Source: a virus (lineage: Duplodnaviria > Heunggongvirae > Uroviricota > Caudoviricetes). Taken from it: a DNA stretch of 27,338 nucleotides. The translations under genes were made by a program, and so were the position numbers. Below, piece by piece: positions 4,233-11,814 of this stretch (position 1 is its first letter; the number at the start of each line of letters is the position of its first letter). Under the pieces are notes generated by a model, which made no database searches, was not told where the DNA came from, and was given only the letters and a program-made list of their open reading frames with translations. Where the stretch lies: IMG/VR virus record IMGVR_UViG_2585427755_000009; one strand, written 5' to 3'.

Positions 4233-5086
4233 GCACCATCCTGAAATGGGCGGGAAATAAAACCGCCATTATGTCCGAACTGAAAAAGCATCTTCCTGCT
4301 GGCCCGCGACTGGTTGAACCTTTCGCGGGTTCCTGTGCAGTGATGATGGAGACGGAGTACCCCAGCTATCTTGTTGCGGATATTAATCCTGATTTAATCA
4401 ACCTCTATAAAAAGGTTGCTGCTGATTGTGAATCGTTTATATCTCGCGCCAGAGTTTTATTTGAGATCGCAAACAGGGGGGTGGCTTATTACAACATAAG
4501 GCAGGAGTTTAATTACTCAACTGAAATTACTGATTTCATGAAAGCGGTATATTTCCTGTATCTCAATCGTCACGGTTACCGTGGTTTATGTCGCTATAAC
4601 AAGAGCGGGCATTTCAACATTCCCTACGGTAATTATAAAAATCCGTATTTCCCTGAAAAAGAAATTCGCGCATTTGCAGAAAAAGCCCAGCGAGCAACGT
4701 TTATCTGCGCCAGCTTTGATGAAACGCTGGCGATGTTGAAGGCGGGGGATGTGGTGTATTGCGATCCGCCGTATGACGGTACGTTTTCCGGCTATCACAC
4801 TGATGGTTTCACTGAAGATGACCAGTATCACCTGGCATCCGTTCTTGAACATCGGTCATCAGAAGGACATCCGGTCATTGTTTCTAACAGTGATACATCC
4901 CTGATCCGTTCGCTGTATCGCAATTTTACTCACCACTATATCAAGGTAAAACGCAGCATCGGTGTGGCAGCTGGCGAGGGTAAATCAGCAACAGAAATCA
5001 TTGCTGTTTCCGGGCCGCGCTGCTGGGTGGGATTTGATTATTCGCGTGGCGTGGATAGTTCTGCCGTGTACGGAGTACGTGCATGA
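4229..5086 (+). CDS. dam: DNA adenine-N6 methyltransferase (Dam family, GATC-type)
   Basis: Catalytic DPPY motif ([10 protein letters not shown]) and N-terminal AdoMet-binding region (LKWAGNK...EPFAGSCAV). Start ATG 4229 overlaps the previous stop (ATGA). Confidence 0.85.
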
Positions 5087-7497
5087 GCCATGCCGATATG
5101 AACAACTGCTGCGGCTTTAACGAGGCTGCCGCAGCGTTCTCATGGAACAGCCCGAAAAAGGCCATTAACCCTTATCTGGACCCGGCGGAAGTTGCGCCGG
5201 TTTCTGCGCTTTCAAACCTGATCGCTCTGTACGCTGCCGATAACGAACAGGAACACCTGCGCCGCGAGGCACTGAGTGATCAGGTCTGGGAGCGTTATTT
5301 CTTTAATGAATCCCGTGATCCTGTCCAGCGCGAAATGGAGCAGGATAAGCTCATTAGTCGGGCAAAGCTGGCGCATGAGCAGCAGCGTTTTAATCCAGAT
5401 ATGGTCATTCTGGCGGACGTCAATGCCCAGCCTTCCCATATCAGCAAGCCGCTGATGCAACGTATTGAATACTTCAGCAGCCTGGGCAGGCCAAAGGCTT
5501 ATTCCCGCTATTTGCGTGAGACGATTAAGCCATGTTTGGAGCGACTGGAGCATGTACGCGACAGCCAGCTATCTGCATCTTTTCGTTTTATGGCAAGCCA
5601 TGTAGGGCTGGACGGCCTGCTGATTCTGCCTGAAATGAGTCAGGATCAGGTGAAACGCCTGTCTACTCTTGTCGCTGCGCATATGAGCATGTGTCTTGAT
5701 GCCGCTTGTGGTGATTTGTACGCCACCGATGATGTTAAGCCAGAAGAAATCCGCAAGACATGGGAAAAGGTGGCAGCAGAAACCCTGCGACTGGATGTTA
5801 TCCCGCCTGCGTTTGAGCAACTTCGTCGGAAAAGAAACCGCCGTAAACCCGTGCCCTATGAACTCATTCCGGGTTCGCTGGCGCGTATGTTGTGCGCCGA
5901 TTGGTGGTACCGGAAATTATGGAAGATGCGTTGCGAATGGCGGGAAGAGCAGTTGCGTGCTGTTTGCCTGGTCAGCAAAAAAGCATCTCCCTATGTCAGC
6001 TATGAAGCCGTGATGCATAAACGTGAGCAGCGCCGTAAGTCGCTGGAGTTTTTCCGTTCTCATGAACTGGTGAACGAAGACGGCGACACGCTGGACATGG
6101 AGGATGTGGTAAACGCCAGCAGCAGCAACCCGGCGCATCGCCGCAATGAGATGATGGCCTGTGTTAAAGGTCTGGAGCTTATCGTAGAAATGCGCAGTGA
6201 CTGTGCCGTTTTCTACACTATCACCTGTCCGTCGCGTTTCCATTCCACGCTCAATAACGGCAGACCAAACCCGACCTGGACAAACGCGACGGTAAGACAA
6301 AGCAGCGATTATCTGGTCGGCATGTTTGCTGCATTTCGTAAGGCTATGCACAAAGCCGGGTTGCGCTGGTATGGCGTGCGGGTGGCTGAACCGCATCATG
6401 ACGGCACAGTTCACTGGCACCTGTTGTGTTTCATGCGCAAAAAAGACCGCCGCGCCATTACTGCATTGTTGCGTAAGTTTGCCATCCGTGAAGACCGCGA
6501 GGAGCTGGGCAATAACACGGGGCCACGCTTTAAGTCTGAGCTGATAAACCCGCGCAAAGGTACGCCAACAAGCTACATCGCGAAATACATCAGTAAGAAC
6601 ATTGACGGGCGTGGTCTGGCTGGCGAGATCAGCAAGGAAACGGGTAAATCCCTGCGTGATAACGCTGAATACGTTAATGCCTGGGCGTCTCTGCATCGTG
6701 TTCAGCAATTCCGCTTCTTTGGTATTCCGGGGCGTCAGGCTTACCGTGAACTTCGCTTGCTGGCTGGTCAGGCGGCAAGGCAACAGGGTGACAAAAAAGC
6801 AGGTGCGCCGGTACTGGATAACCCGCGTCTTGATGCCATTCTGGCTGCTGCTGATGCTGGTTGTTTTGCCACCTACATCGTGAAGCAGGGCGGCGTACTG
6901 GTTCCCCGTAAATATCACCTCATCAGAACCGCTTATGAAATCAACGAAGAGCCGACCGCCTATGGCGATCACGGCATTCGTATTTATGGCATCTGGTCAC
7001 CCATTGCAGAGGGCAAGATCTGCACTCATGCAGTGAAGTGGAAAATGGTTCGTAAAGCCGTTGACGTTCAGGAGGCGGCAGCCGACCAGGGCGCTTGCGC
7101 CCCTTGGACTCGTGGCAATAACTGTCCCCTTGCTGAAAATTTGAACCAACAGGAGAAAGATAAATCAGCTGATGGGGACACCAGAACGGATATTACCCGC
7201 ATGGATGACAAGGAGTTGCACGATTACCTGCACAGTATGAACAAAAAAGAGCGCCGGGAACTGGCTGCAAGGTTACGTCTGGTGAAACCGAAACGGCGTA
7301 GAGACTACAAACAGCGAATTACAGACCATCAACGACAGCAGCTCGTCTATGAACTGAAGTCCAGAGGATTTGATGGCAGCGAGAAAGAGGTCGATTTACT
7401 CCTTCGCGGCGGCAGTATTCCATCAGGAGCAGGCTTGCGTATCTTCTATCGGAACCAGCGTCTGAAGGAAGATGATAAGTGGCGGAACCTGTATTAA
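5083..7497 (+). CDS. repA: Replication initiation endonuclease (P2 gpA / 186 RepA rolling-circle family)
   Basis: 804-aa protein after dam (ATGA overlap); contains the HUH-type motif [11 protein letters not shown] and the downstream YIAKYISK tyrosine region typical of P2 A protein. Confidence 0.9.
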
Positions 7498-7589
7498 TTA
7501 CGCGGGTTAACAATTCGTGCTCTTAATAATACCAGGAATATCAGGCCGATGAACGTAAAAAAACGTTTTACATCAGTAAGATTATTATA

Positions 7590-7609
7590 TACTGTAAATA
7601 TAAACAGTG
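7590..7609 (+). promoter_or_regulatory. LexA (SOS) box overlapping the promoter of the tum/dinI-like operon
   Basis: TACTGTAAATATAAACAGTG contains CTGT-N8-ACAG (7592-7607) with an AT-rich centre, about 45 bp upstream of the AGGAGG RBS and ATG 7650. Confidence 0.6.
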
Positions 7610-7649
7610 GTTATGTATACAGTATTGCTTTGGTGTCATAGGAGGAAAG

Positions 7650-7838
7650 ATGCAGGACTATTTTTTGGAGTCTTTGAAGCTCCAGCGCATTGATTTTTTT
7701 CTTAAGCTTGTAGCGGCTAGTGAGTGTAGTGATGAAGAGAAGGGGCTGGCTCTGCAGTGGGTTTCTGAATTAACTGATGAACTCATGGCAAAAATCAGAA
7801 CCCACGAATACAACCGCTCAATGGATGTCATCAGTTGA
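7650..7838 (+). CDS. Small SOS-induced protein, candidate Tum-like antirepressor
   Basis: 62-aa ORF with strong RBS (AGGAGG) immediately downstream of the LexA box. Position matches 186 tum; the sequence itself was not recognised. Confidence 0.5.
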   Translation: MQDYFLESLKLQRIDFFLKLVAASECSDEEKGLALQWVSELTDELMAKIRTHEYNRSMDVIS

Positions 7839-7849
7839 GGTGACTTTTT

Positions 7850-8083
7850 ATGCGCATTGAAATAATGATCGATAAAGAGCAGAAGATTAGCCAGTCTACC
7901 CTGGACGCCCTTGAATACGAGCTTTACCGCAATCTGCGCCCCCTGTATCCAAAAACGGTAATTCGCATCCGCAAAGGTAGCTCTAACGGTGTGGAACTGA
8001 CCGGACTGCAACTGGACGAAGAAAGGAAGCAAGTGATGAAAATTATGCAGAAAGTGTGGGAAGACGACAGCTGGCTGCATTAA
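7850..8083 (+). CDS. DinI-family protein
   Basis: MRIEIMIDKE...DALEYELYRNL...KIMQKVWEDDSWLH aligns by eye with E. coli DinI (MRIEVTIAKT...DALAGELSRRI...EILQETWESADDWF). RBS GAGGTGA; second gene of the LexA-box operon. Confidence 0.8.
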   Translation: MRIEIMIDKEQKISQSTLDALEYELYRNLRPLYPKTVIRIRKGSSNGVELTGLQLDEERKQVMKIMQKVWEDDSWLH

Positions 8084-8268
8084 GAAACGTTGCCCCTAGG
8101 AGGATTCATTCTAATGGGGGCTAGTTTGGGCAACGAGTGAAATAAGGCGTAAGGTGGGCGGTCATTTTTATAAGTGATCGTCCGCTTTGTGCCAGAAGCG
8201 AACGTTTCTTCTGCTATCTTTCGTCAATTAGCGAATGGCAGACTAATTTGCAACGGATAATCTGAATT

Positions 8269-8295: not shown

Positions 8296-8404
8296 ATTTA
8301 CCAATAATAACCTTACAATGTACACTACCGATTGAGTTTTCCATAGTTGGCCTTTGGCTCTACTTACCATCTATGTTTATGTATTTTATCAAAATGGACT
8401 AAAA

Positions 8405-10297
8405 ATGCACAATACGTACATCAAAGACTATCTAGAATATTACCTTAGCCTTAAAACTGAACCTCAATACGCCATTATGCTTAAAGGTGCTTGGGGATCA
8501 GGTAAAACTTGGTTCATTGAACGAGTTCTTGAAGAATATAGGCAGAAACATTCAGAGTTCAAATTTCTAAAAGTGAGCTTGTATGGCGTCAACTCTATTG
8601 AGCAGATTGAAGATGAGTTCTATCGTCAACTGCATCCTGTCCTATCAAACAAAGCCCTTATCTTTGGTGCAAATGTACTAAAAAATACGCTTAAGGCTAC
8701 TTTCAAGATCGATCTTAATGGCGATAATAAATCTGACGTAGATGTCAATAGCAATGTTCCCACCATTAATCTTAGCGACTTTACTAGAAAACCAGATGGT
8801 TTTGTGCTGGTCTTTGATGATGTCGAGAGAGCTGGTGTAGATTTACCAATCTTATTTGGATATATAAATCACTTTGTGGAGGTAAACGGATACAAAGCGA
8901 TCTTGGTTGCCAATGAAGATGAAATAATCAATAGAGAAAAGCGAATAAATAATGATGATGAGAAATCTCGCAATGAATACATGAGAACAAAAGAAAAGCT
9001 AGTAGGTAAAACATTTGAAGTAACGTCAGATTTACATAGTGCTTGTAAGATTTTTTTGAACGTAATTAGTAGTTTGCATGTTGCTAATATATTTAAAGAA
9101 GATATGCAGACAATAGAGGACCTCTATGTGTCAGCGAATTATAATAATCTAAGACACTTGAGGCAGTTCTTTCTCGATGTACAACGAATTATTTCCCTTT
9201 TGGGAGATAAATATGTAAGTAACGATGAATTTATAAGGGTGTTTTTTCATCAATTGTTAATTTTTTCGATGGAGTACCGGGGAGGGAATCTTAGTTACGA
9301 GGATTTCAATTCAATCGGCAATGTTAATTATGGTATGTTTTTGGGTAAAGAACGTGTCAAAAGTAAGTATGACATGATTGTCGAGAAATATTCGTCTCCT
9401 GTATTAACCGAGAAGTTACTGGATGGTGCGTCTTGGAGAGAACTAATCTGTGATGGAAAGGTAACGGGTGATCTTCTTGCTCAGTTGGATATTACGCGAT
9501 TTTTTAGAAGCAGCGATTCCCAAGCATGGGAGTATTTGTGGAACTATAGAGAACTAAATGAAACTATGCTTTATGAGCAGTACGCTATTGCTAAGGATAA
9601 CCTGTTTTCAGGTAAGATCACTTCCTTAGGTGAACTTCTGATGACAGCGAGTATTTTGCTGGAAATGGCGAAAGAAGGTCTAACAACAGATGATGTTCAT
9701 GATCTCATAAATGAGACAAAACAGAATATAAATAATTATTATAATAGACTTAGAGCTGAAGATGTACATAAGGAATATGCGCAAACACATTATAACGAAT
9801 TAAGGGCATGGCGTGGTTTAGGTTTTCTTGACAGGGATAGTGATGACTTTAAGCTCATTATTGAACATATTAAAATAGAAAGGAAGAAACGGTTTGATGA
9901 TTCAATTTCGGAATTTGCATTGCAGTTCAGAGATGAGTTACAAAGGGGAAAATTATCGTTGTTATCTGAATTGAGTCATTCTAATAATAGACAGTTAAAT
10001 CTTCATGATGTACCTTTTTTACACTTAGTTCCTGCTGATGTTTTCATTGAAAGCTATAGGAAACTTGATCCAGTTATCATGAGGAAACTGGCATTTAGCT
10101 TACGGAGTCGTTATTCTGATGCGGATGCCAGAACTAGACTGATTGAAGAATATAACTGGTTGATCAACCTAAAAGATATAGCTGTAGATTTCATTAAAAA
10201 CTCAGAAAATAGCGTTTTTCAGGTCTTTCACGTAAAATTTTTCATTGACTATGTACTAACTGACGCAATCAAATTCTTTAGTGATGGGACAAATTAA
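8405..10297 (+). CDS. KAP-family P-loop NTPase
   Basis: Walker A GAWGSGKT close to the N-terminus and a Walker B-like hhhhDDVER (VLVFDDVER), the arrangement of KAP NTPases. About 630 aa, AT-rich relative to core phage genes. ATG 8405; the track start at 8354 is TTG. Confidence 0.8.
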   Translation: MHNTYIKDYLEYYLSLKTEPQYAIMLKGAWGSGKTWFIERVLEEYRQKHSEFKFLKVSLYGVNSIEQIEDEFYRQLHPVLSNKALIFGANVLKNTLKATFKIDLNGDNKSDVDVNSNVPTINLSDFTRKPDGFVLVFDDVERAGVDLPILFGYINHFVEVNGYKAILVANEDEIINREKRINNDDEKSRNEYMRTKEKLVGKTFEVTSDLHSACKIFLNVISSLHVANIFKEDMQTIEDLYVSANYNNLRHLRQFFLDVQRIISLLGDKYVSNDEFIRVFFHQLLIFSMEYRGGNLSYEDFNSIGNVNYGMFLGKERVKSKYDMIVEKYSSPVLTEKLLDGASWRELICDGKVTGDLLAQLDITRFFRSSDSQAWEYLWNYRELNETMLYEQYAIAKDNLFSGKITSLGELLMTASILLEMAKEGLTTDDVHDLINETKQNINNYYNRLRAEDVHKEYAQTHYNELRAWRGLGFLDRDSDDFKLIIEHIKIERKKRFDDSISEFALQFRDELQRGKLSLLSELSHSNNRQLNLHDVPFLHLVPADVFIESYRKLDPVIMRKLAFSLRSRYSDADARTRLIEEYNWLINLKDIAVDFIKNSENSVFQVFHVKFFIDYVLTDAIKFFSDGTN

Positions 10298-10659: not shown

Positions 10660-11814
10660 ATGATGTATATCTGCGAAAGTCACATTGTTGAATCAAATAT
10701 AAAAAAACTAATTTTTTCGCAAAATATACGAGGTATTTGTGCTTTTTGTTGTGCAGATACTGTTTGTTTAGATACTGATTCTTCAGAAGTACGTAATTTG
10801 TTGAAAGCTATTCTGAGATATCATTATGATGAAGTCGATTACAATACTCATTTTGGAGGGGAGTATTACCCGAGTTTTCTATTGGAAGATGATTTTATTT
10901 TCACCAAGGATATACAGGAGCATGATGAATCTTTTGGGGAACTCGATAGCGAATTGTGGGATATGGCATTTGATAGTGAGGGAATAAATATTTATGCAGG
11001 CTATGGATCTGATGGTCTATATAATACGCCATATATGTCTATCAGAAATGCACATCAGCCATTTTTAGATTCTCTGTCAAAACAGCTTTCAGAAAAGAAT
11101 TACCATGATTTTGAAGGTGAGCTAAGAAGTATTATAAAAGGTTATGGTGATATTTTTTCGAAGATAATAGAAGGAAGTTCTGTGGTATATAGAGCCAGAG
11201 TTGGGACTGCTGGCTATAAAACAGCACTTAGGGGATTTAGCCGTGAAGGAAAGAAAATATTTGTTCCATTTAAAGATAAGGAAATAGGAGCCGTGCCACC
11301 ACTAAAGGCTACTGCTGGCAGGGCTAATAGAGCAGGCGTTTCTTACCTTTATTGTGCTACAGATAGTTATACTGCAATTGCGGAAGTTCGACCTCATCCA
11401 ACAGATGTTGTTTCAATTGGTAAATTTAGAGTTGCAAAAGCATTAAAGGTATTCGATTTTTCTTATCCTAATTTTTTAGAGTTTATTGAGAGTGATGAAA
11501 GTTTATTATCCATGATACCATATGCAAAGATGGCAGGTATTTTTAATACTGCAACTCCACCTTCCTTAGAAGGAAGATATAGTGTGTCCCAACTAATATC
11601 TGATTGTATAAGGAAAGAGGGGTATGATGGTATACAATTTTCAAGTACAGTTGGTAAAGGTAAGAACTTGGTTGTTTTTAATCCTTCATGTATGGAATTT
11701 ATAGATGGTTCATCAAAAGTAATAGAAATTGACAAGGTTCAGTATATTTACGAGGAAAAGCAGGTTGTTGGTATGAATGATCAATGGGAGATTTATTACG
11801 ATGAAGTTGAATAA
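10660..11814 (+). CDS. RES-domain protein with a Cys-rich N-terminal extension (putative NAD+-targeting toxin/Abi effector)
   Basis: C-terminal half carries the three RES landmarks: GRANRAG (Arg), YLYCATDSYTAIAEVRPH (Glu) and DGIQFSSTVGKGKNLVVF (Ser). N-terminal 200 aa has CxxH...CxFCCxxxxC. AGGAG RBS; AT-rich. Confidence 0.8.
   Translation: MMYICESHIVESNIKKLIFSQNIRGICAFCCADTVCLDTDSSEVRNLLKAILRYHYDEVDYNTHFGGEYYPSFLLEDDFIFTKDIQEHDESFGELDSELWDMAFDSEGINIYAGYGSDGLYNTPYMSIRNAHQPFLDSLSKQLSEKNYHDFEGELRSIIKGYGDIFSKIIEGSSVVYRARVGTAGYKTALRGFSREGKKIFVPFKDKEIGAVPPLKATAGRANRAGVSYLYCATDSYTAIAEVRPHPTDVVSIGKFRVAKALKVFDFSYPNFLEFIESDESLLSMIPYAKMAGIFNTATPPSLEGRYSVSQLISDCIRKEGYDGIQFSSTVGKGKNLVVFNPSCMEFIDGSSKVIEIDKVQYIYEEKQVVGMNDQWEIYYDEVE

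Follow-up and report, generated by a model that had tools for sequence, protein, structure and literature searches.

In phage 186, Tum is a LexA-controlled anti-CI factor (PMC7708051), which binds CI and blocks its DNA binding (Shearwin et al. 1998, cited in PMC3121763 and PMC7708051); the inhibition is both reversible and titratable (PMC3121763; PMC7708051). Tum is a protein of 146 aa whose N-terminal half is the antirepressor and whose C-terminal half is DinI-like, and it has been described as resembling an antirepressor-DinI fusion (Lemire et al. 2011, PMC3121763). The 186 record carries for tum the entry "expression repressed by LexA; inhibits CI DNA binding" and annotates the promoter p95 together with a LexA site, which overlaps the TACTGT −10 hexamer. 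It also gives an internal GTG with its own Shine-Dalgarno (SD) sequence from which a separate, DinI-only product of 76 aa is made, and says of such truncated DinI-only Tum products that they "modulate SOS induction". In Fels-2 and PSP3 tum is split in two (Lemire et al. 2011, PMC3121763, citing Bunny et al. 2002). Antirepressor activity has been reported for the upstream gene of PSP3 (PMC3121763, personal communication from G. Christie), and loss of LexA has been linked to induction of Fels-2 (PMC3121763). The PSP3 record describes tumA as "similar to 5' end 186 tum; UV induction of prophage" and tumB as "similar to dinI and 3' end of 186 tum"; in Fels-2 of Salmonella LT2 the corresponding genes are STM2728 (62 aa), annotated as hypothetical, and STM2726.1 (DinI family), whose annotation notes a similarity to PSP3 TumB. 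A LexA-repressed operon joining a DinI homologue to a small antirepressor is also present in the prophages Gifsy-1, -2, and -3 (dinI-gfoA/gftA; PMC3121763), where the repressor is not cleaved, the antirepressors can act in trans on several repressors, and induction was not significantly altered when dinI was removed by non-polar deletion (PMC3121763). Our own literature search for TumA and TumB returned unrelated papers only.

The window, by which we mean the whole stretch of 27,338 nucleotides that was analysed, is a P2/186-like prophage of the Fels-2 type (Peduoviridae); the features discussed below are collected in Table 1. Its putative SOS module consists of an intergenic region and two small genes directly downstream of the P2/186-type replication gene A. 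The CI repressor of the window is 33% identical to 186 CI, differs in immunity type from that of Fels-2, and is at most 57% identical to that of any phage record; its real start is probably internal to the listed ORF, near position 2027. The match of this CI to Peptidase_S24 fell under the Pfam cut-off (16.1 bits vs 23.3) and no stretch of it passed alone, so that a RecA-stimulated self-cleaving domain is unsupported. Between the integrase gene and cI there is a 63-aa ORF on the minus strand (1242-1433), which has a hydrophobic, signal-peptide-like N-terminus and six cysteines; it had no Pfam match and may be a secreted or lipoprotein moron.

Table 1. Features of the prophage and of its putative SOS module, with positions numbered from the first letter of the window.
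Feature	Position	Strand	Remarks
Integrase	left edge of window		
CI immunity repressor, 186-type	1449-2105	−	Pfam Phage_CI_repr 3.3e-31, Phage_CI_C 4.7e-29
CII, CP76 family	in window		
Dam-like methylase	in window		
gpA replicase	5083-7497		Pfam Phage_GPA 2e-125; upstream of SOS module
Predicted −35 hexamer TTTACA	7567-7572	+	counterpart of 186 p95; 17 nt upstream of TACTGT
Putative LexA (SOS) box 1, TACTGTAAATATAAACAGTG	7590-7609	+	core CTGT-N8-ACAG at 7592-7607 (CTGTAAATATAAACAG); its first six bases, TACTGT, are the predicted −10
Putative LexA box 2, CAGTGGTTATGTATACAGTA	7605-7624	+	core GTGG-N8-ACAG at 7607-7622; overlaps box 1 core by one base
SD AGGAGG of tumA	7640-7645	+	read from sequence; kept before ATG in related loci
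tumA-like gene	7650-7838	+	62-aa predicted antirepressor; homologous to 186 Tum N-terminal half and PSP3 TumA
SD GAGGTG of dinI-like gene	7837-7842	+	read from sequence; overlaps tumA stop codon
tumB/dinI-like gene	7850-8083	+	77-aa DinI-family protein; Pfam DinI 1.9e-22
Long hairpin, possible terminator (uncertain)	8146-8191	+	variable region after operon; 22-pair stem
KAP-family P-loop NTPase	8354-10297		647 aa; matches PADLOC defence candidate PDC-S49, 3e-156
RES-domain protein	10660-11814		384 aa

The first-pass annotation had described a LexA box of the form CTGT-N8-ACAG overlapping the promoter of a two-gene operon, and this description agrees with what we observed. The core of box 1 is the sole CTGT-N8-ACAG of the window, and the 20-mer in which it lies matches the LexA consensus at 17 of 20 positions. 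The bare motif is weak alone, as chance predicts 0.45 copies per window and at least one was present in 34 of 100 shuffles; the longer exact form TACTGT-N8-ACAGT (7590-7608) is less frequent, and the expected number is 0.22 even for a search that tolerates one mismatch. The box is convincing, rather, because of its position, its conservation, and its identity of about 90% to colicin operators (see below). With respect to position, the arrangement of TTTACA, 17 nt, and a TACTGT (7590-7595) lying within the LexA box is the geometry of the annotated 186 p95, and TTTACA or TTTCAC occurred at the same spacing in nearly all related loci. Since TACTGT fits TATAAT at only three of six positions, the SOS promoter of the window was not listed by a consensus promoter scan. 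With respect to conservation, the box and the −35 were kept in 34 of 36 related sequences while the flanking DNA diverged; these sequences came from more than 10 enterobacterial genera, including Escherichia, Salmonella, Citrobacter, Enterobacter, Kluyvera, Serratia, Pantoea, Tatumella, Erwinia, and others. We conclude that the promoter ahead of the 62-aa ORF carries a putative LexA operator which overlaps its −10.

A second SOS box, missed in the first-pass annotation, overlaps the first. Its core has a degenerate left half (GTGG), and the box was present in 23 of 34 related loci. The 39 nt from 7588 to 7626, which span both boxes, show an identity of about 90%, over 37-39 nt, with the operators that precede the colicin R and colicin Y genes by 9 bp, as seen when the window sequence TACTGTAAATATAAACAGTGGTTATGTATACAGTA is set against TACTGTACATAAAACCAGTGGTTATGTATACAGTA of colicin Y (see also PMC2994835). 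By this resemblance the predicted operator, with its two overlapping SOS boxes, belongs to the colicin type, although in the colicins such a pair serves a bacteriocin and lysis operon, whereas in the window it would serve a prophage antirepressor gene. Fels-2 shares the double operator; in contrast, 186 and PSP3 each have a single LexA box. In the colicin operators, binding of two LexA dimers results in very tight repression (PMC2994835), and it is a reasonable inference that the double operator of the window would likewise set a tighter or later SOS threshold.

For the first of the two ORFs, which are 62 and 77 aa long and lie where the first-pass annotation had put them, two possibilities had been left open: that it is the antirepressor part of a split Tum, or that it is an unrelated SOS-induced factor. 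Pairwise BLASTP gave no alignment between the 62-aa ORF and 186 Tum; taken literally, this null result is the lack of similarity to the Tum N-terminus that the first-pass annotation had named as speaking against a split Tum. Profile methods, however, show homology. The 62-aa protein falls in phrog_698 (3.6e-38) and also matches phrog_8554 (2.4e-8) and phrog_1993 (2e-3), the last being the family of PSP3 TumA, and aa 1-70 of 186 Tum match the same three families (phrog_1993, 2e-23; phrog_8554, 3e-12; phrog_698, 6.7e-6). When 28 diverse relatives of the window protein were aligned by hhalign with the 186 Tum N-terminus, PSP3 TumA, and 18 relatives of these, the two families matched with a probability of 95.9% (E 5.7e-9) in a collinear alignment of residues 2-44 with residues 2-44, in which the identity was 19%, i.e., remote. 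Common to both is a pattern in which a helix is followed by a short loop with a conserved Cys and then by a second helix of the form (E/D)-x-x-(L/I)-A-L-x-(W/L)-(I/V)-x-E-(L/I). The AlphaFold2 model of the 62-aa protein is a two-helix hairpin (helices 2-23 and 28-61, pLDDT 88), for which a Foldseek search of the PDB returned only generic hairpins with E of at least 0.5. We found nothing for this ORF in Pfam, NCBIfam, or PADLOC, and a profile search of PDB sequences gave no match.

A single-sequence phmmer search of 1.84 billion representatives with the 62-aa protein yielded 66 proteins, most of them short and stand-alone and three of them long, with an unrelated architecture. None of the 66 contained a DinI part, and phmmer alone therefore provided no bridge to Tum. 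Likewise, among 181 relatives of the window-type TumA, none had a fused DinI part. The median pairwise dN/dS of 0.076 shows strong purifying selection on the gene, and a TumA 100% identical to that of the window occurs in dozens of phages. In RefSeq the gene bears the name "hypothetical protein", and PHROGs lists its family, phrog_698, under "unknown function". Some records name it "levan regulatory protein", a label that is probably spurious, and stand-alone homologues of the 186 type are named "Tum protein".

The DinI-like character of the second gene, already recognized in the first-pass annotation, is clear: its 77-aa product scored 79.8 bits against Pfam DinI (PF06183; cut-off 24.2) and matched 1GHH, the structure of E. 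coli DinI (6.3e-6); this match extends over residues 1-75 and takes in the acidic WED..W helix at the C-terminus. It also aligned to positions 71-148 of phrog_189, the Tum/DinI family, whose 151 positions span the whole of Tum. It aligned to aa 71-145 of 186 Tum with 41% identity, so that the description in the first-pass annotation of a Tum of about 146 aa with a DinI-like C-terminal part was correct. The protein is 78% identical to PSP3 TumB. It failed as an equivalog of the chromosomal dinI, for which NCBIfam PRK10597 gave 41.7 bits vs a cut-off of 111, and on these comparisons we class it as a phage paralogue of the TumB/Tum C-terminus type. From its family membership it would be expected to bind RecA filaments and to modulate their co-protease activity. 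Thus, in the comparison of both ORFs with 186 Tum that had been called for, the 77-aa protein aligned directly, and the 62-aa protein did so by profiles but not by BLASTP. Together these results indicate that both ORFs are homologous to halves of Tum, and they favour a split Tum over an unrelated factor.

We then compared the layout of the two genes with those of the described phages. In 186 both parts are fused in one ORF, whereas in the window they are separate. The window and Fels-2 have the same arrangement downstream of a gpA-like gene, with 96.4% DNA identity in the region, 98% identity between the TumA proteins, and 99% between the TumB proteins. PSP3 also has a two-gene split Tum behind a LexA box and after gene A; however, PSP3 encodes a 186-type TumA whose relationship to the window 62-aa protein is only remote, and the two PSP3 genes are in the same frame, with a TAG stop and one further codon between them. 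The description "split by a stop codon" therefore suits PSP3 but not the lineage of the window. In the window, the DinI-like ORF begins 11 nt after the tumA stop; among relatives, the distance from the tumA stop to the tumB ATG ranged from about 10 to 13 nt, with longer spacers in a few loci, and all three values of the tumA/tumB frame offset occurred. Even near-identical prophages differed in the relative frame of the two genes: the T-run at 7845-7849 has five T in the window and four T in both Fels-2 (L001) and the Escherichia sp. MOD1-EC7003 prophage (L005), and the latter is otherwise identical to the window. In spite of this variation in the sequence and length of the spacer, the purine-rich SD of the dinI-like gene was kept in relatives. 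Of 33 related loci, 11 keep the LexA box and tumA but lack the DinI-like gene; loci with tumA but without the DinI-like gene (L010, L014, L020, L024, L028-L035, and L037) have a different sequence after the tumA stop. Because the spacer and the frame offset vary and the dinI-like gene is missing from these 11 loci, tumA and the dinI-like gene are independent cistrons. The variable spacer length and the occurrence of all three frame offsets led us to reject a programmed frameshift or readthrough that would join the two ORFs. A weak hairpin at 7827-7844 (GTCATCAGTTGAGGTGAC, followed by TTTTT) extends across the tumA stop and the dinI-like SD; we considered it as an attenuator or a translational-coupling device and dropped this idea, as the stem is unconserved in relatives; the hairpin probably has no function.

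We propose that these genes probably constitute the SOS-induction module of a Fels-2/186-type prophage, composed of a TumA-like antirepressor of CI and an accessory DinI-like protein. That LexA binds, that TumA interacts with CI, and what the DinI-like protein does we infer, for the window copy, from sequence and by analogy with the described phages. In an undamaged cell, LexA would occupy the double operator, which covers the −10 and the transcription start downstream of gene A, and both genes would be silent. DNA damage would lead to RecA-stimulated self-cleavage of LexA and so free the promoter; the 62-aa TumA-like hairpin protein would then be made, bind the 186-type CI, and block its binding to the operator, as 186 Tum does. 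Inactivation of CI would derepress the lytic promoter and induce the prophage. The 77-aa DinI-like protein, made from its own ribosome-binding site, would probably modulate RecA filaments and SOS timing, as an accessory factor rather than as the inducer. We assign the essential part to TumA, rather than to the DinI-like protein, because 11 of 33 loci lack the DinI-like gene, none of the 181 relatives is a fusion, and the Gifsy prophages tolerate deletion of dinI.

If TumA acts on CI, the two proteins might be expected to diverge together. We compared them in 27 prophages and found essentially no correlation between TumA identity and CI identity (Spearman about −0.07). In the 40 pairs whose TumA proteins were at least 95% identical, the median CI identity was 45% and the lowest value 37%; the N-terminal domain of CI was about 55-60% identical in these pairs, compared with about 26-34% for the C-terminal domain. 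Identical TumA proteins also occur beside CIs that are 43-57% identical. The absence of TumA-CI covariation is unexpected for a specific protein inhibitor unless a conserved CI surface is recognized. It is an observation in favour of a different reading, in which the 62-aa protein is SOS-induced but not directed at CI, and instead has some other conserved host or phage target, or a function unrelated to induction; this reading would also fit the lack of a function in Pfam, NCBIfam, PHROGs (phrog_698), or RefSeq, and a structural model that is a generic helical hairpin without a significant match. Nevertheless, we consider it unlikely. The homology to the Tum N-terminus is collinear from residue 2; the genomic position, the promoter geometry, and the DinI-like partner are those of 186 tum and PSP3 tumA; and the literature both gives the upstream gene of PSP3 an antirepressor activity and ties LexA loss to Fels-2 induction (PMC3121763). 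Moreover, the conserved scaffold of the CI N-terminal domain could be a common target of the near-identical TumA proteins. Recognition by TumA of a conserved CI surface, of which the scaffold of the N-terminal HTH domain is the best conserved, is in our view more likely than a non-CI target.

A reversal of the two roles, with the DinI-like protein as the real inducer (for example, via its activity on RecA filaments) and the 62-aa protein as the accessory, we regard as very improbable. The dinI-like gene does lie within the LexA-controlled unit of tumA, and the DinI-only Tum products of 186 are recorded as modulating SOS induction; against this, the tumA gene and its LexA box persist in the 11 loci without a DinI-like gene, a CI domain that could undergo self-cleavage is unsupported by the Peptidase_S24 score, and induction of the Gifsy prophages was not significantly affected by the non-polar dinI deletions (PMC3121763). 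Finally, 62 and 77 aa together come near the 146 aa of Tum and the ORFs are in different frames, as they would be in the debris of a once-fused tum gene inactivated by frameshift, but we give this pseudogene reading hardly any credence, since each ORF has its own ATG and SD, tumA has the low dN/dS given above, the split form is the rule among relatives (0 of 181 fused) and the layout is present in 1,125 of 5,426 complete E. coli genomes, spacer length and frame vary with neither ORF being lost, and 186 too makes a separate DinI-only product from an internal start.

Returning to the module as an antirepressor of CI with an accessory DinI-like protein, we examined the DNA beyond it. Homology to Fels-2 ends exactly at the stop codon of the dinI-like (tumB) gene, indicating a variable cargo slot between the dinI-like and portal genes. 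In the window this slot holds the KAP NTPase and RES-domain genes, whereas in Fels-2 it holds STM2726 and others; in 186 the next gene in the operon is orf97, which has no counterpart in the window. STM2726 (L001 3663-4394) and 186 orf97 (L002 7605-8336) occupy the same position after the tum genes and both encode 243 aa; when a homologue of orf97 was sought, STM2726 showed no similarity to it. The RNA fold of 8070-8260 had a z of −5.5 and included the 22-pair stem, which is followed by a poor U-tract. A scan for terminators after the operon found none with a good U-tract and only one weak terminator-like site, at 8183-8200.

The split layout is already known from Fels-2 and PSP3, and the module is very common; in the E. 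coli genomes mentioned above, about 21% of those complete, it is annotated as "DinI-like family protein" and "hypothetical protein". As a discovery it carries little weight, as it is the known SOS trigger of Fels-2/PSP3/186-type prophages. Its practical value is for annotation: a reasonable label for the 62-aa gene is TumA-like, a putative antirepressor under LexA control. The Gifsy operons offer a parallel from lambdoid prophages with the reverse gene order, dinI being first, and with antirepressors and repressors of other families. The lack of correlation between TumA and CI divergence, the pairing of near-identical TumA proteins with CIs 37-57% identical, and the greater conservation of the CI N-terminal domain lead us to raise, tentatively and with more doubt than confidence, the possibility that the window-type TumA is a "master key", targeting a conserved surface of the N-terminal domain of 186-type CI rather than an immunity-specific one. 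If so, one TumA could inactivate heteroimmune CIs and cross-induce co-resident Fels-2-like prophages, and the SOS threshold would, through the double LexA operator, be higher and later than the one set in 186 by a single box. Both this operator and the decoupling of TumA from CI may bear on the induction of co-resident P2-like prophages, and we offer them as modest leads.
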